Shown here in pieces: positions 2,732 to 27,215 of a stretch of 64,000 nucleotides of DNA (position 1 is its first letter; each line of letters opens with the position of its first letter). The stretch lies in NCBI GenBank assembly GCA_013112535.1, contig JABFGI010000007.1, positions 43,592-107,591 on the forward strand. The letters run 5' to 3'. The notes beneath the pieces are model-generated. The model saw only the letters and a list, made by a program, of their open reading frames with translations, was not told the origin of the DNA and did not search any database. A program made the position numbers and the translations under genes. This stretch comes from Pseudomonadota bacterium. Its GTDB lineage: Bacteria > Pseudomonadota > Gammaproteobacteria > Eutrophobiales > Eutrophobiaceae.

Positions 2732-4894
2732 CTAAGAGACCAGTTTGTTAGTGTTGTCAGTACAATGATTAGATTCATATTCCTTCGCCCACAGATAAAA
2801 GTCACTTGCCGGCAATGGTCGCGAATAATAAAAACCTTGAACGACATCACATTGATGCTGTTTCAGGTATTCAAGTTGCTCTTTATCTTCCACTCCTTCC
2901 GCAATAACCTTATAGCCTAAATTATGTGCCAATGAAATTAACGCATTCACTATAGTTGCATCATCTTTATCATGCATAAGATCGTGTACAAAACTTTGAT
3001 CGATCTTTAATTTTGATATCGGCAAGCGTTTGAGATAGCTCAACGATGAATAACCTGTCCCAAAATCATCAATGGAAATACTGGCACCAAACTCCCTTAA
3101 TTCCTGAAGCACAGGCAAGACAATATCGACATCTTCCATTAATACCGACTCGGTAATTTCCAAATCCAGACGTGACGCTTCAAATCCGGCTAAACGTAAA
3201 TGTTTAAAAATATGCTCATTGATATTTTTATCGAGTAATGATGCCGGTGTAATATTTATAGCAACAGATTCCAGTTCAAATCCTTGCTTGCCCCAATCGG
3301 AAAGTTGTCTACAAGCTTCAGCAATAGCCCAATCCGTCATTGGCATTATTAAACCGGTGTTTTCAGCCAGGGGAATAAAATTTGTTGGAGGGACCAGCCC
3401 CATATCAGGATGATTCCATCTGATTAAAGCTTCTGCACCTGTAATATGTCCATCATCCAGACTAATTTTAGGTTGATAATAGAGTTGGAATTCTTCTCTT
3501 TCCAAAGCCTTGCGTAAACTTGTCTCCATGGATAATCTCTGGAAAGACTGTGCATTCATCGAATCGGTATAAAACCGATAACAATTCCGACCAGTTTCTT
3601 TTGCATTATGTAATGCTACGCTTATCTTTTTTAATAAACCTTCAACTTCATCGCCATCTTCAGGATAAACCCCGATACCAATACTTGCTGTCAAATGAAT
3701 TTCATTTCCAGGAATTTGAAATGGCTCATTAAATTCATGGTTAATCCGGCGCGCTATCTTCGCTGCCTCATCTGCATTATTAATTTCGTTAAGCATGATA
3801 ATAAAATTATCACCGCCAAAGTGGGCAACAAGTCCTGTCCTGAAACTGACTTCATCATCATTAATGCTTCCAGAATTTGAATTATCTATATCCTGAATAA
3901 TATTGCCTAGTCTCTGACTTGCCGCCAATAACAATTTATCACCAACGTCATGACCCAGTGTCGTATTAATACGCATGAATTTATCAAGATTAATATCTAG
4001 CAAGGCAAAATGACGATCATGCCGTTTTGAAGATTCGATTGTTTTTTTAAGCAGTCGTTTAAAAAACTGTCGATTAGGTAGACCGGTAACACTATCGTAA
4101 AAAGACAGGGTCTGAACTTTCTTTTCAGCGTTTCTTAAATCAGAAATATCCTGGAAGATACCAAAGATTATTCCTTCATTTATTTCATCATAATTATCAG
4201 TATCAATAATTTGTCTGATTTGTTTTTTAGAGCCATCATTAATCTTGATAGAATACTCAATACTGTGATTCGATTTTTCCAATGATGCATTATCCAGTAC
4301 ATTACGTACTCGATTTACATCATTTTTATCAATACAATTAATTAAATCTTCATGCGACATTACATTTGAATTGTTAATACCGAATATTTTGGTCACTTCA
4401 TCAGAGCAGAAAAACTGTTTTTTTTGTATGTCGTAGGTCCATTCACCCATTTTTGCAACTTTTTGAGCTGACAATAGTTGCCTTTCCCTGTTAGCCAGTT
4501 GCTTGGCTATTTCACTAGCGCGTAATGAGAATTGAACCCGGTGATTGAGTTTAGCCTGGTTAATGGGTTTTGTTATAAAATCGGTTGCGCCTTTATTATA
4601 GGCTTCATTAACCGAAGCCTGATCATCCTGCGCAGTCATAATCATAATTGGGATGTGTTTTTCAGAACTGAATGTTGATGCTTTTTCACAAAACTCGAAG
4701 CCATTCATCCCGGGCATATTTACGTCGGCCATGACCATATCGGGAGATTCAGCTTTTAATTTTTCAAGGCCAACAATACCATCAGCAGCCTCAATAATAA
4801 TATAATCCTGTTTTTCCAGCTTAAGTCTTAATATCTGGCGAATATCCTTATCATCATCAATAATTAATATCTTTTTTTTAGTTTCCTCTTCCAT
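2732..4894 (-). CDS. Response-regulator receiver / PAS / GGDEF(degenerate) / EAL c-di-GMP protein
   Basis: N-terminal REC (ILIIDDD...MADVNMPGMNG), a central PAS-like region, a GGDEF domain whose signature reads GGDNF, and a C-terminal EAL domain (EALIRW, DDFGTGYSSL, KIDQSF). Confidence 0.85.
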   Translation of the reverse strand: MEEETKKKILIIDDDKDIRQILRLKLEKQDYIIIEAADGIVGLEKLKAESPDMVMADVNMPGMNGFEFCEKASTFSSEKHIPIMIMTAQDDQASVNEAYNKGATDFITKPINQAKLNHRVQFSLRASEIAKQLANRERQLLSAQKVAKMGEWTYDIQKKQFFCSDEVTKIFGINNSNVMSHEDLINCIDKNDVNRVRNVLDNASLEKSNHSIEYSIKINDGSKKQIRQIIDTDNYDEINEGIIFGIFQDISDLRNAEKKVQTLSFYDSVTGLPNRQFFKRLLKKTIESSKRHDRHFALLDINLDKFMRINTTLGHDVGDKLLLAASQRLGNIIQDIDNSNSGSINDDEVSFRTGLVAHFGGDNFIIMLNEINNADEAAKIARRINHEFNEPFQIPGNEIHLTASIGIGVYPEDGDEVEGLLKKISVALHNAKETGRNCYRFYTDSMNAQSFQRLSMETSLRKALEREEFQLYYQPKISLDDGHITGAEALIRWNHPDMGLVPPTNFIPLAENTGLIMPMTDWAIAEACRQLSDWGKQGFELESVAINITPASLLDKNINEHIFKHLRLAGFEASRLDLEITESVLMEDVDIVLPVLQELREFGASISIDDFGTGYSSLSYLKRLPISKLKIDQSFVHDLMHDKDDATIVNALISLAHNLGYKVIAEGVEDKEQLEYLKQHQCDVVQGFYYSRPLPASDFYLWAKEYESNHCTDNTNKLVS

Positions 4895-17053: not shown

Positions 17054-18457
17054 TTATAAATCCAGCTCAAGTTGTTTAATCTTTCGCGTTAATGTGTTTC
17101 TACCCCAACCCAGAAGTTTAGCCGCATCCTGACGACGTCCACCTGATTTCTTTAATGCTTCTTCAATCAAGATTGTTTCAAATCGTGGAACGGCATTACG
17201 TAATAACTCTGAATCGCCTTGCGACAAACTGGACTCAGCCCATTTTCTAAATGTAGATTCCCATTCGTCAGAGACCTCGACAACTTCGGTATCTTGCCTT
17301 AACTCCGGAGGCAAATCATCGATGTGGATTTCCCCGCCCGATGCCATCACTGTTGCCCAACGACAAAAGTTTTCAAGTTGCCTGACATTCCCAGGCCATG
17401 ATAAATTAGTCAGGTAATCTTCCGTTTCAGGCATTAACTGTTTTACTTCTTCGTTCAGTTCAATTGCAGCTGAATTTAAAAAATGCTTTGTCAGCTCAAT
17501 AATATCGGTTCTTCTTTCCCGTAATGGCGGCACATGTACTCTTATAACATTTAAACGATGCAGCAAATCTTCACGAAACTTTCCTTCTTTAACCAGTTGT
17601 TCAAGATTTTGATGTGTGGCGGCTATGACTCTTACATTTACTTTAATAGGAATATGTCCACCAACACGATAAAATTCACCTTCCGCCAGAATTCGTAATA
17701 GGCGTGTTTGTAAATCAGCAGGCATATCACCTATTTCATCCAAAAATAAAGTACCGCCATTCGCTTGCTCGAAACGACCCATACGTTGCCCACTTGCACC
17801 TGTAAATGCTCCCTTCTCATGACCAAATAACTCTGATTCAAGTAAGTCCTTGGGAATTGCAGCGGTATTGATTGCAATGAAAGGATGACTCGATCTGGGA
17901 CTGTGTTGATGCAGGGCACTGGCTACCAGCTCTTTACCTGTACCCGATTCACCCGTAATTAATACGGTAAAATTAGAATTTGAAAGTCGTCCAATGGCTT
18001 TGAATACTTCCTGCATTGCAGGTGCGGATCCAATAATCGATGTGTTTTCTGCAGTAGCATCAACAACTGGAGCCGTGCTATTTTTTTGTTTATGCGTAAT
18101 AGCACGTTTTACCAGACTTACTACTTCATCAACATCAAAAGGTTTTGATAAATATTCATAAGCTCCTCCCTGAAATGCCGAGACAGCTCGATCAAGGTCA
18201 GAATAAGCCGTCATAATAATGACCGGAATGTCAGGTGATTGTTGTTTAATCTGTTCAAGCAAGGAGATGCCATCCATGCCAGGCATACGAATATCTGAAA
18301 TGATGACATCCGGTTGTTCGTGATGCATTTTTTTTAATACTTCATCGGGATTTGAAAAACTTTGAATATCGACATCCGTTTTTTGCAAGGCTTTTTCCAG
18401 AACCCAACGAATGGATTTATCATCATCCACGATCCATACTTTTTGTGTCTCATTCAT
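17054..18457 (-). CDS. glnG: Nitrogen regulation protein NR(I), sigma-54-dependent response regulator
   Basis: REC + AAA+ (GESGTGKE, GAFTGA) + C-terminal Fis-type HTH. Start set at MNETQKVWIVDDD, where its ATG overlaps the ntrB stop (ATGAATGA). Confidence 0.93.
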   Translation of the reverse strand: MNETQKVWIVDDDKSIRWVLEKALQKTDVDIQSFSNPDEVLKKMHHEQPDVIISDIRMPGMDGISLLEQIKQQSPDIPVIIMTAYSDLDRAVSAFQGGAYEYLSKPFDVDEVVSLVKRAITHKQKNSTAPVVDATAENTSIIGSAPAMQEVFKAIGRLSNSNFTVLITGESGTGKELVASALHQHSPRSSHPFIAINTAAIPKDLLESELFGHEKGAFTGASGQRMGRFEQANGGTLFLDEIGDMPADLQTRLLRILAEGEFYRVGGHIPIKVNVRVIAATHQNLEQLVKEGKFREDLLHRLNVIRVHVPPLRERRTDIIELTKHFLNSAAIELNEEVKQLMPETEDYLTNLSWPGNVRQLENFCRWATVMASGGEIHIDDLPPELRQDTEVVEVSDEWESTFRKWAESSLSQGDSELLRNAVPRFETILIEEALKKSGGRRQDAAKLLGWGRNTLTRKIKQLELDL

Positions 18458-19556
18458 TTTCGTATTCCATTGGGAGTAAGATGCTGAAATAGGTATCACT
18501 TTCTTTGCGTTCATAATTAATTAAACCACCATGAGATTGAATAAGTTGTTGTGCAATAGATAAACCGAGCCCTGTACCTTCGGCACGTCCTGTGACCAAA
18601 GGATAAAATGCACCAGCTTCGATTTCGGGAGGGATGCCCGGGCCATCATCAATGATATCAACTTCGATGATATGTCTGTTTAAACGATGTTGAATCGTTA
18701 CCTGTCGCCGAATCCGTGTTCTTAATGTAATAACACCGTCATCATCAATTGCCTGAACGGCATTTCGAATAAGGTTTAATATTGCTTGTATAATTTGTTC
18801 ACGATCAGCCTTTATTGACGGAATACTCGGGTCGTAATCCTTCTTGAATTTCAATGGTTGTTCATTTTCTGCACAAACAACAGAAACGACATATTCCAGC
18901 ACCTCGTGAATATTCATCGCTGATTTAGCTGGCTGGTTACTTGTTGTCAACATACGGTCGATAAAGTGTCTTAATCGATCAGACTCGTTGATAATGAGTT
19001 GCGTGTATTCAAGCAAATCTTTATTTTCAAGTTCTCGTTCTAATAATTGAGCTGCACCACGAATGCCACCCAGTGGATTTTTAATTTCATGCGCCATACC
19101 CTGCACAGATTCTTTTGCTGCTTCCTGAACTGTTTGTTGATTTGCTTCTTGCATGACACGAACAAAAGCATCGGTATCAACTAACTCCACCAGAATTTCT
19201 TCCGCCGCTTCATTAACCAGAACCGGCGTAATCATGCAATCGACCAAAATAGTCTGGGCATTATTAAGATTAAGTTCCACCCCTCTTTCTATACAGGTAC
19301 TACCCGAATAAAGAGCACGTTGAATCGCCTCATAGAAGAATGATGAATTTGGCCAGATTTGTTTAGGTGTCATCCCTGCAACACGATTATGACTAACGGA
19401 TAGTAGCCCCTCGCCCGCACTGTTTATAAACAGTAACTGAAGGTCCTTTCCAAACAATAAGACAGCTGTAGCCAGATTTTCAATAATTCTTACTGGCGTT
19501 TCAGACAATGCATTCATAATCTGCTCATTATTGCACTGTTTTAGTGCGTATTTCAC
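18450..19556 (-). CDS. glnL: Nitrogen regulation sensor histidine kinase NR(II)
   Basis: PAS + H-box (MAHEIKNPLGGIRGAAQLL) + ATPase N/G boxes. Coupled to the ntrC homolog. Confidence 0.92.
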   Translation of the reverse strand: MKYALKQCNNEQIMNALSETPVRIIENLATAVLLFGKDLQLLFINSAGEGLLSVSHNRVAGMTPKQIWPNSSFFYEAIQRALYSGSTCIERGVELNLNNAQTILVDCMITPVLVNEAAEEILVELVDTDAFVRVMQEANQQTVQEAAKESVQGMAHEIKNPLGGIRGAAQLLERELENKDLLEYTQLIINESDRLRHFIDRMLTTSNQPAKSAMNIHEVLEYVVSVVCAENEQPLKFKKDYDPSIPSIKADREQIIQAILNLIRNAVQAIDDDGVITLRTRIRRQVTIQHRLNRHIIEVDIIDDGPGIPPEIEAGAFYPLVTGRAEGTGLGLSIAQQLIQSHGGLINYERKESDTYFSILLPMEYENE

Positions 19557-19669
19557 GTATCAATCCTTGCTAATAATTTATAGATTTTTTTATTTTAATG
19601 AAAACAATAAGTTAAAAAGAAATAAAAATATAATTCTTTCGATATTAGTGATTAGAGCAAGAAGCAGAC

Positions 19670-19677
19670 CAGTTGAA
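19670..19677. repeat. Left copy of the 8-bp target-site duplication CAGTTGAA
   Basis: Identical octamer at 22159-22166, each directly abutting a terminal inverted repeat. Confidence 0.8.
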
Positions 19678-19701
19678 GGTGTTTATCCCCTTGCGTCATG
19701 T
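19678..19701. repeat. Left terminal inverted repeat (IRL)
   Basis: See the mobile element entry; 19/24 match to the reverse complement of 22135-22158. Confidence 0.8.
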
Positions 19702-19748
19702 AGTTATTTATCATATACTATACCCATATAACATGTAAGGAGCCGTAA

Positions 19749-20618
19749 GTGTCTGATTTTACTATAATTGAGTTCTTTGATCGTTTCCCAACTGATGATG
19801 TGTGTCTTGACCATCTGTGGCTTGTCCGCTTTGGTGCTTCATATAAGTGCCCCAAGTGTTCTAAAGAGGGTAAATTCCACCGTGTTAAGAAACGCCCTGT
19901 TTATGAGTGCCAATGTTCTCATCAAGTCTCCCCTATGATGGGTACACCGTTTGCCAAGTCTCGTACTTCTCTGCGTAAATGGTTCTACGCTATGTATTTG
20001 TTCACGACTTCGCGTCATGGTGTGCCTGCAAAAGAACTACAACGTCAACTAGGTGTTACTTATAAAACCGCCTGGCGCATGGGTCACGAAATCAGAAAGT
20101 ATATGTCTGATGTTGATGGTGACGGTCAATACGGTGGTCACGTTGAAATGGACGAGACTTATATTGGTGGTAAGAAAAAACATAAAGACTCAAGCTACAA
20201 ACTAAACCGTAGTCACTTCAAAGATAAAACTATCGTTTACGGTATGGTAGAGCGTAACGGTAGTCTACAGACTTATGTAGTAGAAGACCGTAAACGTAAA
20301 ACAATACAAAAGCACGTTGATAAGAAAGTCGTTAAAGGCTCTATCATTAGTACTGATGAAGCTCCTTGTTATCAATTCTTAGGTAAAGCAGGTTACCAAC
20401 ATGGTTCTGTTTGTCATGAAGACTACGAATGGAAAAACGGTATTTACCACACTAATACTATTGAGGGTTTCTGGTCACGTTTAAAGAGTTCTATTCGTGG
20501 TACTCATATACATGTTAGTAAAAAGTATCTGCCTAACTACTTAGGAGAATTTGAGTACAGATATAATATGCGTAAAAGCCCTAAGTGGATGTTTGAAAGA
20601 CTGCTAGGCGCATTCTGA
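19749..20618 (+). CDS. IS1595-family (ISXO2-like) DDE transposase with N-terminal zinc ribbon
   Basis: CPKC...CQC zinc ribbon. Catalytic-region motifs VEMDETYIGG, ISTDEAPCY and NTIEGFWSRLK. GTG start 6 nt after an AAGGAG SD. Confidence 0.9.
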   Translation: MSDFTIIEFFDRFPTDDVCLDHLWLVRFGASYKCPKCSKEGKFHRVKKRPVYECQCSHQVSPMMGTPFAKSRTSLRKWFYAMYLFTTSRHGVPAKELQRQLGVTYKTAWRMGHEIRKYMSDVDGDGQYGGHVEMDETYIGGKKKHKDSSYKLNRSHFKDKTIVYGMVERNGSLQTYVVEDRKRKTIQKHVDKKVVKGSIISTDEAPCYQFLGKAGYQHGSVCHEDYEWKNGIYHTNTIEGFWSRLKSSIRGTHIHVSKKYLPNYLGEFEYRYNMRKSPKWMFERLLGAF

Positions 20619-20639
20619 TCTATAATAAATCTGTTAAAG

Positions 20640-20835
20640 AATTGGGAACACTGCCCCTTTCTACCTAACGGCGAAAGACGCAGTGTAATCCCCGGCGGAG
20701 TGGCAACTCCCACCGTTAGGAGGCCAAGATACTGCCCGTTATAACTAACCGACAGTTCCTCGTAACCTCCAAAGAACGGCCAACTAAGTAATTAGTGACT
20801 GTTCGAGGCCTCAACGGTCGCTCTTACGTGGAGAA
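20640..20835 (+). ncRNA. Candidate structured RNA or structured 5' leader (unclassified)
   Basis: No ORF in any frame, and visibly more GC-rich than its flanks. Complementary pairs: ACACTGC 20648-54 / GCAGTGT 20680-86; CCTAACGG 20664-71 / CCGTTAGG 20713-20 (interleaved with the first pair, so pseudoknot-like); GGAGT 20697-701 / ACTCC 20706-10; CCTCG 20758-62 / CGAGG 20804-08; ACTAA 20783-87 / TTAGT 20792-96. Strand inferred from the downstream terminator. Confidence 0.35.
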
Positions 20836-20840
20836 TACCC

Positions 20841-20927
20841 ATGTTAAAGCTAACGTTGAAAATTGAGTTGAGCTACAAGCAAGCAATATGTTTCATCCTT
20901 TTCTTGCTCACGCTTTACCCAATTTGA
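20841..20927 (+). CDS. Possible 28-aa hydrophobic peptide (MLKLTLKIELSYKQAICFILFLLTLYPI)
   Basis: GGAG at 20830-33, 7 nt before the ATG. Hydrophobic C-terminal half. A terminator hairpin starts 7 nt after the stop. Too short to be confident. Confidence 0.25.
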   Translation: MLKLTLKIELSYKQAICFILFLLTLYPI

Positions 20928-20933
20928 TTTAAC

Positions 20934-20968
20934 CCGTCCCCCGAAAGGGGGCGGTCTACTTCTTTTCT
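20934..20968 (+). terminator. Hairpin terminator (GAAA tetraloop) followed by a T-rich tract; may act on both convergent transcripts
   Basis: CCGTCCCCC-GAAA-GGGGGCGG (8 bp with one bulge), followed by TCTACTTCTTTTCT. Confidence 0.55.
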
Positions 20969-21108
20969 GTAGGTTTATTCTTTGCCATCCGGCCTAACAT
21001 ATTATCAAACTGCTTTTCATTGCCTTTTGACGGGTGTTCTTTGATGAAGCGTTTTAATTGCTTTTCGTCTTTAGCTTCTTCTAGGGATGTGTATTTACCA
21101 GTGGACAT
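20956..21108 (-). CDS. Possible 50-aa basic protein (MSTGKYTSLEEAKDEKQLKRFIKEHPSKGNEKQFDNMLGRMAKNKPTEKK)
   Basis: ORF below the track threshold, starting 12 nt after the ImmA-like stop on the same strand. No clear SD. Confidence 0.3.
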   Translation of the reverse strand: MSTGKYTSLEEAKDEKQLKRFIKEHPSKGNEKQFDNMLGRMAKNKPTEKK

Positions 21109-21120
21109 TTAAATGTATTT

Positions 21121-21588
21121 TTAACGGCTTAATTTTATACTCATTGCCTGCTTTGAAACCTGTAATCTTTCAGCCATAGCATCTACATTAAGCCCTTGAT
21201 CTTCATAATCAGTTACAAGCTGCTCCGGCATTAATAAATAAGCAGCAAAACTATTTGCTTCTGTTTCTTGGTGACTAGATATGCTTGTATTATTGTATTT
21301 TCCGCTAGTGCTTCTATACATTCTGTCTTCAGTAATGCCATCACCAATCAAAGGCCTATGAAGAATATAATGACCTAATTCGTGAGCTATAGTAAATCTT
21401 TGTCTAGTTAATCCATCAGCTTTGTTTATAGTGATTCTAAATTTACCATCGTCTTTTTTTTCTATTTGACCAGAGACATCATCTTCCATTGTTTCATAAG
21501 AAAGCTCTATTCCTAACTCGCTACATAGACCAACAACATCTACCGGAGCAGATTTTCTATAATCATCAATTAACTGGTATGTATTCAT
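21121..21588 (-). CDS. ImmA/IrrE-family (COG2856, peptidase M78) zinc metalloprotease
   Basis: HEXXH motif (AHELGHYILH) plus the downstream E..ANSFAAYLLMP block typical of ImmA/IrrE. Confidence 0.8.
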   Translation of the reverse strand: MNTYQLIDDYRKSAPVDVVGLCSELGIELSYETMEDDVSGQIEKKDDGKFRITINKADGLTRQRFTIAHELGHYILHRPLIGDGITEDRMYRSTSGKYNNTSISSHQETEANSFAAYLLMPEQLVTDYEDQGLNVDAMAERLQVSKQAMSIKLSR

Positions 21589-21597
21589 GATTAACTC

Positions 21598-22047
21598 CTA
21601 ATCGTTATCGTCTTGAGCTTGCATAATTTGATCCGCAATAGGATCATTTTCTGAAGCGTTTTTTGCTAGCTCCATATAACTATCAACAAACTCTGGTAAC
21701 TTTTCTTCTAAATCTTCTATAACTAACTTTTCAACATTGTCGTGAACATCACTTTCAAGTTTTTGCCAATTACTAACTACTGTGTCTTCACATCTTTTTA
21801 ATATCACTCTATAAACTGGCAAAGCTGCAAAAACCAATAAGGCAGCAACTATCGCAAGCAATAAAGATATAAAATCGAGCCGTCCTAATTGACCAGCCAC
21901 ATTCATTGAGTCGATTAATCTCTGGTCTCCGCCGTATATGTCGAGAACTAGCTCAGGCTTATAAAAATAATAAGTTGCGCCCCAAGTAACGCACATAATC
22001 AATGCGCCACAAGCTAATCCCGCTAGAAAAGCTATTGTTCCTTTCAT
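21598..22047 (-). CDS. Two-TM membrane protein with an acidic C-terminal cytoplasmic tail, unknown function
   Basis: TM1 is IAFLAGLACGALIMCVTWGATYYF and TM2 is FISLLLAIVAALLVFAALPVY. Stop lies 9 nt before the ImmA-like start. No SD before the ATG. Confidence 0.6.
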   Translation of the reverse strand: MKGTIAFLAGLACGALIMCVTWGATYYFYKPELVLDIYGGDQRLIDSMNVAGQLGRLDFISLLLAIVAALLVFAALPVYRVILKRCEDTVVSNWQKLESDVHDNVEKLVIEDLEEKLPEFVDSYMELAKNASENDPIADQIMQAQDDND

Positions 22048-22072
22048 AATTTATGATTGTAGAACAAATAAC

Positions 22073-22105
22073 AAAGTTCCGAAATAGTTCTCTTAAAGTT
22101 CTCCT
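22073..22105 (-). promoter_or_regulatory. Three tandem 11-bp direct repeats upstream of the cargo operon (candidate operator or iteron)
   Basis: Plus strand reads AAAGTTCCGAA / ATAGTTCTCTT / AAAGTTCTCCT, with the AGTTC cores exactly 11 bp apart. An inverted GAACA lies at 22062-66. A TACAAT -10-like hexamer (minus strand, 22056-61) sits 8 nt before the ATG. Confidence 0.45.
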
Positions 22106-22134
22106 TCAAATAAGATACTATATCAGCAGAAAGC

Positions 22135-22158
22135 ACATGATTCAATGGGATAGCCACC
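22135..22158. repeat. Right terminal inverted repeat (IRR)
   Basis: ACATGATTCAATGGGATAGCCACC; its reverse complement matches IRL at 19/24 positions. Confidence 0.8.
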
Positions 22159-22166
22159 CAGTTGAA
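22159..22166. repeat. Right copy of the 8-bp target-site duplication CAGTTGAA
   Basis: Identical to 19670-19677. Confidence 0.8.
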
Positions 22167-22216
22167 TAACTGATGAAATGGTTCGGAAAAGAATCCTCTA
22201 TTTATAAAAAGAAAAT

Positions 22217-22711
22217 TTACTTCGTGGCACGAAGCAAAGAAAAACTACTCGACGTTGAAATCAGTTTCTTACCACTGCCGTCGATGACACTGGCACTGAT
22301 ACTATGCGTCCCTCGGTCAACATTTTGTAACGAAACACTGCTACCGGAGCCAATTTCCTTGCCGTCCATTGAAATAATGATTTTATGCCCTGTTTGTAAT
22401 GCCGGCTCAAGTGAAAGAGAAATACTGACATTACCGTTATTACTCCTGATACCTGCACCATTTTCAGGACTGCTAACGGTTAAGCTTTCATATTGAAAAG
22501 CACTTTCTTCGGCTTGTTTTGGACTGGGTTTATATTTAGCTGGATTAGGGTTTTCTATTGTCTCTAATTTTTCAATTTTTATTTCTTCTGCTTCCTCAGA
22601 AGGTTTATCAGTAAAGATAATATTGCCGTCTTCATCCACTGACTTATAAACTGTTTCTGCGCCTAAACAGCCAACAAATACAACCAGAAGTAGAGATATA
22701 ATTAATTGCAT
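22217..22711 (-). CDS. Secreted DUF4124-like protein
   Basis: Signal peptide followed by the motif VYKSVDEDGNIIFTDKPS. C-terminal domain is paralogous to the next gene. Confidence 0.65.
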   Translation of the reverse strand: MQLIISLLLVVFVGCLGAETVYKSVDEDGNIIFTDKPSEEAEEIKIEKLETIENPNPAKYKPSPKQAEESAFQYESLTVSSPENGAGIRSNNGNVSISLSLEPALQTGHKIIISMDGKEIGSGSSVSLQNVDRGTHSISASVIDGSGKKLISTSSSFSLLRATK

Positions 22712-22749
22712 TCGTCTAGCATACCTTAGTTAATTACTCTCTAAAACCG

Positions 22750-23367
22750 TTACAAGGTAGGAATTTTCGGGATTTCGGGAGGAGTGTCGCTACCGGCTGG
22801 AGGTGTTATAACAGTGTTCCCATTATTAACATTGTCTTTGGCCCTGTTTTTAAATAATTTTGACTCCTTTCGAAGATGGAAAGTTGTTTGTTTTGAACGC
22901 TTTAATATTTTCTTATTTTCATTCTCTATTAAAGCTGCAATAGTATGAGAACCACGATCAATTCCCTGTAAAGATAACTGCAATGACTTTCCTGAACTCA
23001 CCTCTTTACCATCCATAAAAAAAACAATCATATGTTTGTCATCAAGCTCAGGTGTCATTTCCAGGCTAATATTAACGATACCTTCGTTACTTCTGATAGT
23101 GGAATCATGTTCAGGTAAAGTAACTTCAAAACGAGTATAGTTTAATTCTTCCGGCGATAACTTAGTTGCCCGCCTATTATCCAGTCTTTTAGGCTTTGGT
23201 ATGTTTATCGTCTGTGCTTCATCTATTATTATCTCTTCAGCACCTTCGCTTGGTACATCGGAAAATATAATATTACCTTCTGCATCTCGTGTTTTATAAA
23301 CTGTTTCAGAAGCAACAGATACAAACCAAATAACACTCACAATAATCAAAAGCAGTTTAATTTTCAT
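22750..23367 (-). CDS. Secreted DUF4124-like protein (tandem paralog)
   Basis: Signal peptide followed by VYKTRDAEGNIIFSDVPS. C-terminal block IRSNEGIVNISL...DRGSHTI parallels IRSNNGNVSISL...DRGTHSI in 22217-22711. Confidence 0.65.
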   Translation of the reverse strand: MKIKLLLIIVSVIWFVSVASETVYKTRDAEGNIIFSDVPSEGAEEIIIDEAQTINIPKPKRLDNRRATKLSPEELNYTRFEVTLPEHDSTIRSNEGIVNISLEMTPELDDKHMIVFFMDGKEVSSGKSLQLSLQGIDRGSHTIAALIENENKKILKRSKQTTFHLRKESKLFKNRAKDNVNNGNTVITPPAGSDTPPEIPKIPTL

Positions 23368-23619
23368 AGTTAATAGACTAGCACTAATGTATTGTAGTTC
23401 ATAAAAAAGCAGCTATTAAATCTACGTAATGTCTACTTTGTCTCAATTAGTTTATATATGCTTATATCACTAGTTTCATAACTATTATTTACTGTTTGTT
23501 ATGCTTCATCTGAATAAGTGTCTTATAATAAAAGCAAATAAGGCTTTAAATTTAACAATTTTAAAGCGACAAGTTCATTCTGAAAATGATAATCCGATAA
23601 ACAAAAAGGGTGTTTGTAC

Positions 23620-26688: not shown

Positions 26689-26985
26689 TTAAACTTCAGT
26701 ACGAGTAATCCAATATCCAGGCTCTCGACGTTGATGAGCAACTGCAACGACTAATATTGAATCAATATCAATTTCATATAAAACGGCAAAAGGAAAACGT
26801 CTAACCAGTTTTCTTCTAATATTGTTACGTACTTTTGAAGATGCTTTCGGGGATTCTGAAATGAGACCGCACGTTTTACGAACTTCATGGATAAAAGCGA
26901 TACCTAATCCTGAGCTTTGTTGCTGGTAATAGGAACTTGCCTGAATAATTTCTTCTTCTGCTTCCTGCAGAAAATTAACAATCAT
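26689..26985 (-). CDS. RelE/ParE-family type II toxin
   Basis: 98 aa. The pattern RRFPFAVLYEI...ILVVAVAHQRREPGYW is typical of ParE/RelE toxins. Overlaps the antitoxin stop by 1 nt. Confidence 0.75.
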   Translation of the reverse strand: MIVNFLQEAEEEIIQASSYYQQQSSGLGIAFIHEVRKTCGLISESPKASSKVRNNIRRKLVRRFPFAVLYEIDIDSILVVAVAHQRREPGYWITRTEV

Positions 26986-27215
26986 CAGCTAAATTTCTGT
27001 TCTATCTCAGAAAAGATTTCCTCAGCAGACCGCGCGGTAGTCTTCCCTGAACGATAATCTGATAGTCGACGTTCGGCTTCATCCAACCATTGCTGTTCGA
27101 CATCCTGATCTTTCCCTAAATCAAGACCTGCAATTAAACGCCTCACAAGATGAGCACGCTCTTGCGTAGACAAGTTCAGCGCTGCTTTCTCAATATCACC
27201 AATTTCTTTATCCAT
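26985..27215 (-). CDS. Addiction-module antitoxin (TIGR02574-like)
   Basis: 76 aa. The motif LSTQERAHLVRRLIAGLD...WLDEAERRLSDYRSG is characteristic of this antitoxin family. Confidence 0.7.
   Translation of the reverse strand: MDKEIGDIEKAALNLSTQERAHLVRRLIAGLDLGKDQDVEQQWLDEAERRLSDYRSGKTTARSAEEIFSEIEQKFS

Follow-up and report, generated by a model that had tools for sequence, protein, structure and literature searches.

We analysed a window of 64,000 nucleotides (nt) from a bacterium of the Pseudomonadota (Eutrophobiaceae; contig JABFGI010000007.1, positions 43,592 to 107,591) and focused on one small mobile element in it. This region is a 2.48-kb "transporter IS" of the IS1595 family of insertion sequences (IS), which carries a three-gene operon convergent with its transposase gene (Table 1). 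Mapping of the terminal inverted repeats (IRs) and the target-site duplication placed the element at 19678-22158 (2,481 bp, containing the transposase gene and three passenger genes), inserted intergenically, with ntrB (18450-19556) on one side and a DUF4124 gene (22217-22711) on the other. The 8-bp direct repeat CAGTTGAA is perfect (8/8) and flush with both element ends. The IRs are imperfect, with 18-19 of 24 positions agreeing between the left and the right copy. In an exhaustive scan, all position pairs flanked by matching 8-mers were scored on 24 terminal positions. The pair described here was at the top with 19/24, followed in the same locus by an AT-rich low-complexity match with 15/24, and the best pairs in loci without a clean element scored 10/24 or lower. 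The pair of ends is far above background. The transposase matched PF12762 (3.4e-40), an N-terminal zinc ribbon (PF12760, 1.1e-7) and the NCBIfam model NF033547 (212.5 bits, cutoff 75). The sequence-only reading of this window had proposed that the operon travels on a transposon, and the location of the IRs and of the target duplication bears this out.

No second IS copy or other long repeat was found within the window, and no empty-site joints were found in four bioreactor metagenome runs searched as contigs. Logan contigs of two metagenome runs (X1 and X4) break inside the transposase gene, at 19898-19918 and 20426-20482. These breaks could mean that those communities contain more IS copies of this kind, or just that coverage was low.

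Table 1. Features of the IS1595-family element and its passenger genes (positions in the window; a dot marks features given without a strand)
Feature	Position	Strand	Description
Left target-site duplication copy	19670..19677	.	8 bp, CAGTTGAA, identical to 22159-22166; ranked first with its partner in the scan for element ends
Left terminal IR	19678..19701	+	GGTGTTTATCCCCTTGCGTCATGT; weaker similarity to ~19721
IS1595-family DDE transposase, 289 aa	19749..20618	+	Convergent with the cargo genes; PF12762, PF12760, NF033547
Non-coding spacer, 337 nt	20619..20955	.	Between transposase stop and cargo; strongly structured
GC-rich hairpin, 8 pairs (7 G-C)	20934..20954	+	Adjoins the stop codon of the 50-aa frame; terminator-like, T-rich tail on the + strand
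50-aa lysine-rich open reading frame	20956..21108	-	Between the cargo and the transposase 3' end; conserved in a subset of related elements
155-aa stand-alone Peptidase_M78 (ImmA/IrrE/CapP fold)	21121..21588	-	Predicted antitoxin or regulator; PF06114, fold
HELGH motif, residues 69-73	21370..21384	-	Zinc-binding/catalytic; columns invariant among homologs
149-aa protein with two transmembrane helices	21598..22047	-	First gene of the cargo; tail long, acidic and helical; predicted to be a membrane toxin or a substrate of the protease
QLGRLDF motif, residues 53-59	21871..21891	-	Just before the second transmembrane helix; most conserved element of the membrane family
Sigma-70-like promoter match	22117..22145	-	Candidate promoter of the cargo operon; TTGAAT, 17-nt spacer, TG, TATAGT; overlaps the inner right IR
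Right terminal IR	22135..22158	-	Reverse complement is GGTGGCTATCCCATTGAATCATGT
Right target-site duplication copy	22159..22166	.	CAGTTGAA, abuts the right IR

The three open reading frames (ORFs) that had been proposed before any database search were all recovered: a 149-amino-acid (aa) protein with two transmembrane (TM) helices, a 155-aa HEXXH protease and a 50-aa ORF, with a gap of 9 nt (21589-21597) between the first two genes. An AGGAG ribosome-binding site lies ahead of the start codon of the protease gene. The candidate promoter is a consensus-level match only; matches of this kind were no more numerous in the region than expected from shuffled sequence.

The 155-aa protein matched Peptidase_M78 (PF06114) with 69.3 bits (cutoff 22), covering the full profile (1-123). 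In an alignment of 38 M78 homologs, H69, E70, H73 and E108 were invariant, and the profile aligned with CapP and IrrE across the AHElGH motif and a conserved Glu downstream of it. The AlphaFold2 (AF2) model had a predicted local distance difference test (pLDDT) score of 93, and a Foldseek search with it retrieved CapP (7t5t, E 2.9e-8, TMq 0.74) and the PprI/IrrE structures 8sln and 3dte (E about 4e-6). Judged from sequence and model, the protein is confidently placed in the ImmA/IrrE/CapP fold and has an intact metalloprotease active site, with its activity being predicted. Its alignment to the CapP/IrrE chains of about 290-300 residues is confined to their N-terminal part, and their C-terminal sensor domain is missing from the window protein. 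Among the PADLOC hidden Markov models (HMMs), capP was the best match (6e-31, model positions 12-150 of 242); 14 RmrA HMMs also matched, the best with 8.8e-16, over the peptidase part only (model positions about 160-290), and similarity to PD-Lambda-2_B was weak (E 0.014). In total, 543 homologs were found at E ≤ 1e-10. In the phage collection, the protein matched gp32 of Gordonia phage Kita with 34.7% identity over 93% of the query (E 3e-13). Kita gp32 is the validated RmrA antitoxin of a RosmerTA toxin-antitoxin (TA) system; its partner RmrT both depolarises the membrane and makes it permeable, and together the two give defence against the phages Bas54 and Bas59 (Ernits et al. 2023, PMC10440598).

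In the 149-aa protein, residues from about 4 to 24 and from about 58 to 78 form hydrophobic helices. Its AF2 model (pLDDT 81) consists of helices 2-28, 42-134 and 136-146, so that the second TM helix continues into the acidic tail. The family shares one or two N-terminal TM helices, and many members of 105-125 aa are without the first one. D46, A51 and QLGRLD (53-58), directly before the last TM helix, are conserved, and G55, R56, L57 and D58 are invariant. After the last TM helix, the family shows basic residues, a helical charged tail and a C-terminal ADxIAxAQDD. We infer that the tail is cytoplasmic and the protein N-in/C-in, because basic residues follow the second TM helix and a cytoplasmic protease must reach the tail. 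QLGRLD would lie at the outer face of the membrane. A HMMER profile search of the family gave 382 representatives (50% clustering) at E ≤ 1e-3, and 66 at E ≤ 1e-10. A word-indexed search gave only 4 clusters (25 with a profile), a small yield which reflects the word filter and not rarity. The protein had no match in Pfam, NCBIfam, PHROGs or PADLOC, its model had no PDB match in Foldseek, and tblastn with it against the plasmid collection gave no match. Profile searches of the three ORFs detected neither an Xre-type or other helix-turn-helix (HTH) partner nor any other DNA-binding domain, as had been expected from the sequence alone; detection of a conventional Xre partner was one of the two observations which, according to the sequence-only reading, would overturn it.

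The membrane protein and the protease were found together wherever this could be assessed. All 4 clusters of the word-indexed search had an M78 gene directly downstream. In the reciprocal direction, metagenome and viral contigs were searched with the QLGRLDF motif; 12 loci were obtained, with an M78 gene downstream in 10 of the 10 that could be assessed; the remaining 2 end at a contig edge. Overall, about 30 independent pairs were collected from several phyla, with the same gene order and an abutting or overlapping junction, and a membrane gene without an M78 gene was never seen among the assessable loci. The sequence-only reading had named the absence of ImmA-like genes beside homologs of the membrane protein as the observation that would overturn it; these pairs contradict that, and the neighbourhood survey it proposed shows that the pairing recurs.

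The pairing is linked to one group of M78 proteins. When 80 genome loci were ranked by M78 similarity, among the matches listed, 15 of the top 21 had the membrane family upstream and none had Xre; among the remaining 59 more distant loci, Xre abutted upstream in 29 and the membrane family was upstream in 3. In a neighbour-joining tree of 94 short M78 proteins, made without support values, the M78 protein of the window fell in a group of 33 leaves, 26-28 of which had the membrane family upstream and none Xre. The neighbouring group holds Kita RmrA and has a partner with one or two TM helices downstream, and a third group has Xre upstream. As far as sequence comparison can tell, each M78 group goes with its own type of partner, namely Xre upstream, a Kita-type TM protein downstream, or the TM family of the window upstream. 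Distances between M78 proteins and between membrane proteins were correlated (r = 0.40), a value reached by 0 of 500 permutations. The pairing is not due to chance, and the two genes diverge together.

M78 genes without an intact membrane gene were found in three loci (L016, L024 and L030), and the reverse orphan was never seen. This distribution fits the membrane protein as a toxin and supports it weakly. In L016, a metagenome-assembled genome (MAG) of Pseudomonadales, fragments of a membrane gene in two frames with an internal stop (3739-3999) lie upstream of an intact M78 gene. They represent either a pseudogenised partner or an assembly error.

In seven independent loci (the window, L007, L019, L021, L032, L094 and L101), the pair is followed by a convergent IS1595 transposase gene. 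L032, from Cognatishimia sp. MH4019, holds a second complete element of 1,953 bp with the target duplication AAACTATG. Its IRs begin GGGGTGTATCCCCT, and the start GGnGnnTATCCCC is common to this element and the left IR of the window. No clean IR or target duplication was found in L021, L094 and L101, and only the elements of the window and L032 are demonstrably complete. Pairwise local alignments among five IS1595-linked copies gave identities of 33-57% for the transposases, 36-55% for the M78 proteins and 27-39% for the membrane proteins. With components so deeply diverged, the pair and IS1595 would either have long been associated or have come together repeatedly. No description of IS1595 elements with a membrane-protein/M78 cargo was found in the literature, with ISfinder lying outside the search.

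About three quarters of the pairs had no transposase gene within 4 kb. No IR remnants were found beside these solitary pairs, so they are not obviously decayed IS copies. The pair was also present in three IMG/VR viral contigs, and in L009 it was located in an element with integrase and primase-polymerase genes, beside a SocA_Panacea gene. With the IS1595 elements, these cases agree with the mobile-element setting suggested from the sequence alone. In L009, direct repeats of about 300 nt (2227-2529 and 3907-4205, 74-87% identical) flank the pair; they duplicate the 3' half of a 210-aa gene, and the pair resembles a cassette placed by recombination. In three loci, a gene for a Beta_protein (PF14350) of about 355 aa follows directly after the pair (L023 2002-3084, L028 3936-5003 and L031 4469-5524), and the Beta_protein of this three-gene variant matches PADLOC "beta" and PD-Lambda-2_C. 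In the window itself, a ParE_toxin (98 aa) and an Unstab_antitox (76 aa) gene were annotated with Pfam on the minus strand at 26689-27215 (L001 2833-3359), about 4.5 kb from the transposon.

The 50-aa ORF, which had been called only as a possible gene, has homologs in L007, L019 and L021 and is a real conserved gene, which matched no known family above threshold. We also considered whether it is a disguised Xre protein. This was rejected, since its match to TIGR02684 was below threshold (E 0.0036, 17.5 bits with a cutoff of 53.7), lay on the non-HTH half and was not reproduced by the homologs. In L021 (1717-5544, an Afifellaceae MAG, between recA and a histidine kinase gene), two IS1595-type units stand in tandem: one has the membrane-protein/M78 pair, and the other has a different 213-aa protein with two TM helices and a homolog of the 50-aa ORF, without M78. 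Since L021 keeps the 50-aa ORF beside a transposase gene that lacks M78, the ORF may be linked to the transposase end and not to the protease pair. The 337-nt spacer of the window element has a GC content of about 46%, compared with about 36% nearby, and its fold had z-scores of -5.8 (+ strand) and -6.9 (- strand) against shuffled sequences. No other copy of the spacer was found, related elements are without it, and Rfam gave no match over 19000-23600. It could be a 3' untranslated region of the transposase RNA, a small RNA or a small inserted element.

We propose, by analogy with RosmerTA, that the pair is a membrane-toxin/protease-antitoxin (or abortive-infection) module carried as stable transposon cargo, an interpretation that we consider about evenly balanced between right and wrong. 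The membrane protein would be the toxin and would damage or depolarise the membrane. The cytoplasmic M78 protein would be the antitoxin, which binds and probably cleaves the cytoplasmic tail of the toxin, a tail whose gene would occupy the position of the Xre repressor substrate in canonical pairs. Inhibition, titration or loss of the protease, as by phage infection or when the element is lost, would set the toxin free to act. Such a module may stabilise the transposon, give the host phage defence, or both, and either benefit would explain why it stayed with the transposase over such deep divergence. This proposal rests on homology and architecture, and the topology, the toxicity and its neutralisation, the cleavage, the trigger and any benefit to the transposon are all inferred. 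Of the three functions offered by the sequence-only reading (a protease/substrate switch, an addiction or abortive-infection-type module, and a regulator of the element), the kinship with Kita RmrA at about 35% identity favours the second, which stays a proposal as a function. Its notion of a non-canonical pairing holds in that no HTH partner is present, but M78 with a membrane protein has precedents in RosmerTA and in the ImmA hub of NetFlax.

Several points weigh against a RosmerTA-like module. The membrane family has no detectable homology to any PADLOC, PHROG or Pfam family, and Kita RmrT is not detectably homologous to it (hhalign probability 1.5%), so that a common origin with the Kita-type partners was rejected. 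The gene order is reversed, as Kita gp33 lies downstream of the protease gene and the membrane gene of the window comes first. In Kita gp33 the N-terminus is soluble and the two TM helices are C-terminal, whereas the window protein has N-terminal TM helices and a soluble C-terminal tail. Typical holins have basic tails, whereas this tail is acidic. The neighbours of solitary pairs are mostly housekeeping genes and not obvious defence islands. The tree that separates the M78 groups is without support values, and the single pseudogene case comes from a MAG, where it could be a sequencing error. Finally, a membrane gene in the slot of the Xre substrate fits a signal-activated switch equally well.

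This switch is the main rival. To our knowledge, in every characterised ImmA/IrrE/CapP system (ImmR/ImmA, DdrO/IrrE and CapH/CapP) a signal makes the protease cleave the protein encoded next to it. Cleavage of neighbour products has been discussed by Makarova et al. (2009). By this rule, the membrane protein would replace Xre as the substrate and be inert until the M78 protein, as activator, is itself activated by DNA damage, single-stranded DNA or a phage protein; cleavage of the tail would then activate a membrane effector or release the tail as a signal. The membrane gene takes exactly the place that Xre has in the related group, upstream on the same strand with an abutting or overlapping junction, the protease has its best counterparts by profile and by structure in CapP and IrrE, the conserved C-terminal ADxIAxAQDD could be a recognition or cleavage site, and the downstream Beta_protein of one subgroup looks as if the pair controlled an effector. 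We nevertheless regard the switch as unlikely, because the 155-aa protein has no counterpart of the C-terminal sensor domain found in CapP/IrrE, its nearest tested relative works as an antitoxin, and orphans of M78 exist and of the membrane gene do not. In a bolder reading, which we hold to be unlikely, an IS1595 lineage would keep the module as a standing part down to about 33% transposase identity, and the membrane protein would be a new envelope-sensing effector in which the invariant QLGRLD senses phage entry or membrane stress and the protease responds by cleaving the conserved acidic tail. An ImmA/IrrE switch would then have exchanged its DNA-bound repressor for a substrate in the membrane.

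Alternatively, the pair and the 50-aa protein together might couple IS1595 transposition to a cellular or envelope signal, as ImmR/ImmA does with ICEBs1 excision. The association with IS1595 is recurrent and old (seven loci, with the identities given above) and always convergent, ImmA is a precedent on a mobile element, and the 50-aa ORF stays with the M78-less transposase in L021. Such a regulator is quite unlikely, as most pairs stand without a transposase gene or IR remnants, the pair is also found in phage and integrative-element settings, and no DNA-binding domain was detected in the three proteins; moreover, many IS1595 elements transpose without such cargo genes. In another arrangement the polarity would be reversed, with M78 as the toxin and the membrane protein as an inhibitor or anchor that holds it inactive at the membrane. 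COG2856 was listed as the predicted toxin of Xre-COG2856 pairs (Makarova et al. 2009), and the partner-first order resembles the common antitoxin-first arrangement. We consider this very unlikely, since a toxic M78 should be lethal in L016, L024 and L030, where no intact membrane gene accompanies it, and the RosmerTA experiments make the peptidase protein the antitoxin. That the two genes are unrelated passengers lying side by side is extremely improbable: the order and junction recur in about 30 independent loci of several phyla, are kept at 27-39% (membrane protein) and 36-55% (M78) identity, and belong to genes that diverge together.

With 382 representatives, the family of small membrane proteins defined here is fairly large, and its members are obligately paired with ImmA/IrrE proteins without HTH that form a group of their own. 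RosmerTA and the ImmA hub of NetFlax gain a further partner type and gene order, and the M78 grouping leads to a simple annotation rule for genes annotated as "ImmA/IrrE family metallo-endopeptidase" that lack a repressor. The element is also a concrete case of a TA- or defence-like module fixed as cargo of an IS-sized transposon, which bears on how such modules spread and why transporter IS keep passengers. If the module is indeed a standing part of an IS1595 lineage, these elements of 2-2.5 kb would be among the smallest mobile units with an addiction or immunity device of their own. Two components are of already known kinds, namely an M78 protease with a membrane toxin, as in RosmerTA, and passenger genes on IS1595 elements. 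The membrane family, its fixed upstream place in a dedicated M78 group and the recurrent carriage by IS1595 appear to be undescribed.

Among known systems, RosmerTA is the closest in organisation, as both are two-gene operons of an M78 Zn-peptidase and a small membrane protein of an otherwise unknown family. RmrT proteins are diverse. RosmerTA was defined as a Zn-peptidase antitoxin with a toxin of unknown function, and a deletion of rmrA was unobtainable, possibly through toxicity (Millman et al. 2022, preprint). ImmA is a hub antitoxin domain with variable gene order in the NetFlax analysis (PMC10440598). Kita RmrA is, like the M78 protein of the window, short (178 aa); only the peptidase part of the RmrA models is matched and no HTH region is present. 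Both proteins show the same PADLOC pattern, with capP best and RmrA models next, and the group of Kita RmrA adjoins that of the window in the M78 tree. Canonical RmrA (models of about 360-400 positions) has an N-terminal region with a reported HTH, which the window protein lacks. An N-terminal HTH is not universal in RosmerTA, because the validated Kita RmrA is also without it. The window module is transposon cargo, whereas Kita RosmerTA is encoded in a prophage.

The M78 group of Kita has a recurrent downstream partner of 120-200 aa with a soluble N-terminus and one or two C-terminal TM helices, often ending in YLFPK. It was seen in 16 loci (L064, L047, L074, L066, L087, L082, L027, L034, L088, L063, L039, L065, L091, L058, L042 and L069), and Kita gp33 (L104 2944-3303) is of the same type. 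This partner appears to be a widespread RmrT family across Actinomycetota, Bacillota and lineages of the candidate phyla radiation.

ImmR/ImmA of ICEBs1 and the Xre-COG2856 pairs share with the window module PF06114, a length of about 160 aa, a partner gene immediately upstream on the same strand, and location on mobile elements. The partner in the window is, however, a membrane protein without HTH and cannot be a DNA-binding repressor, and its M78 protein belongs to a separate group in which Xre was not seen as a partner. CapH/CapP and DdrO/IrrE (PprI) gave the best profile and structure matches (7t5t, 3dte and 8slm), and the active site of HEXXH plus Glu is common to them; they differ in that the window protein consists of the N-terminal protease domain only and has no HTH partner. 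CapH/CapP differs further, as no CBASS or other effector operon lies inside the window transposon. PD-Lambda-2 is a three-gene defence system with an M78-like B component and a Beta-protein as C component, and the subgroup of L023, L028 and L031 has a matching Beta_protein. The window element has no Beta_protein gene, and its similarity to the B component is marginal.

On the side of the transposon, a "transporter IS" (tIS) with passenger genes is a known concept for IS1595, as introduced in a passage of PMC11891212 that cites Siguier et al. (2009). The window element agrees with this type in its IS1595 transposase with a zinc ribbon, its short imperfect IRs, the 8-bp duplication and passengers unrelated to transposition. 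TA modules are also known as cargo of Tn3-family transposons, but elements of the window type, at about 2-2.5 kb, are much smaller.

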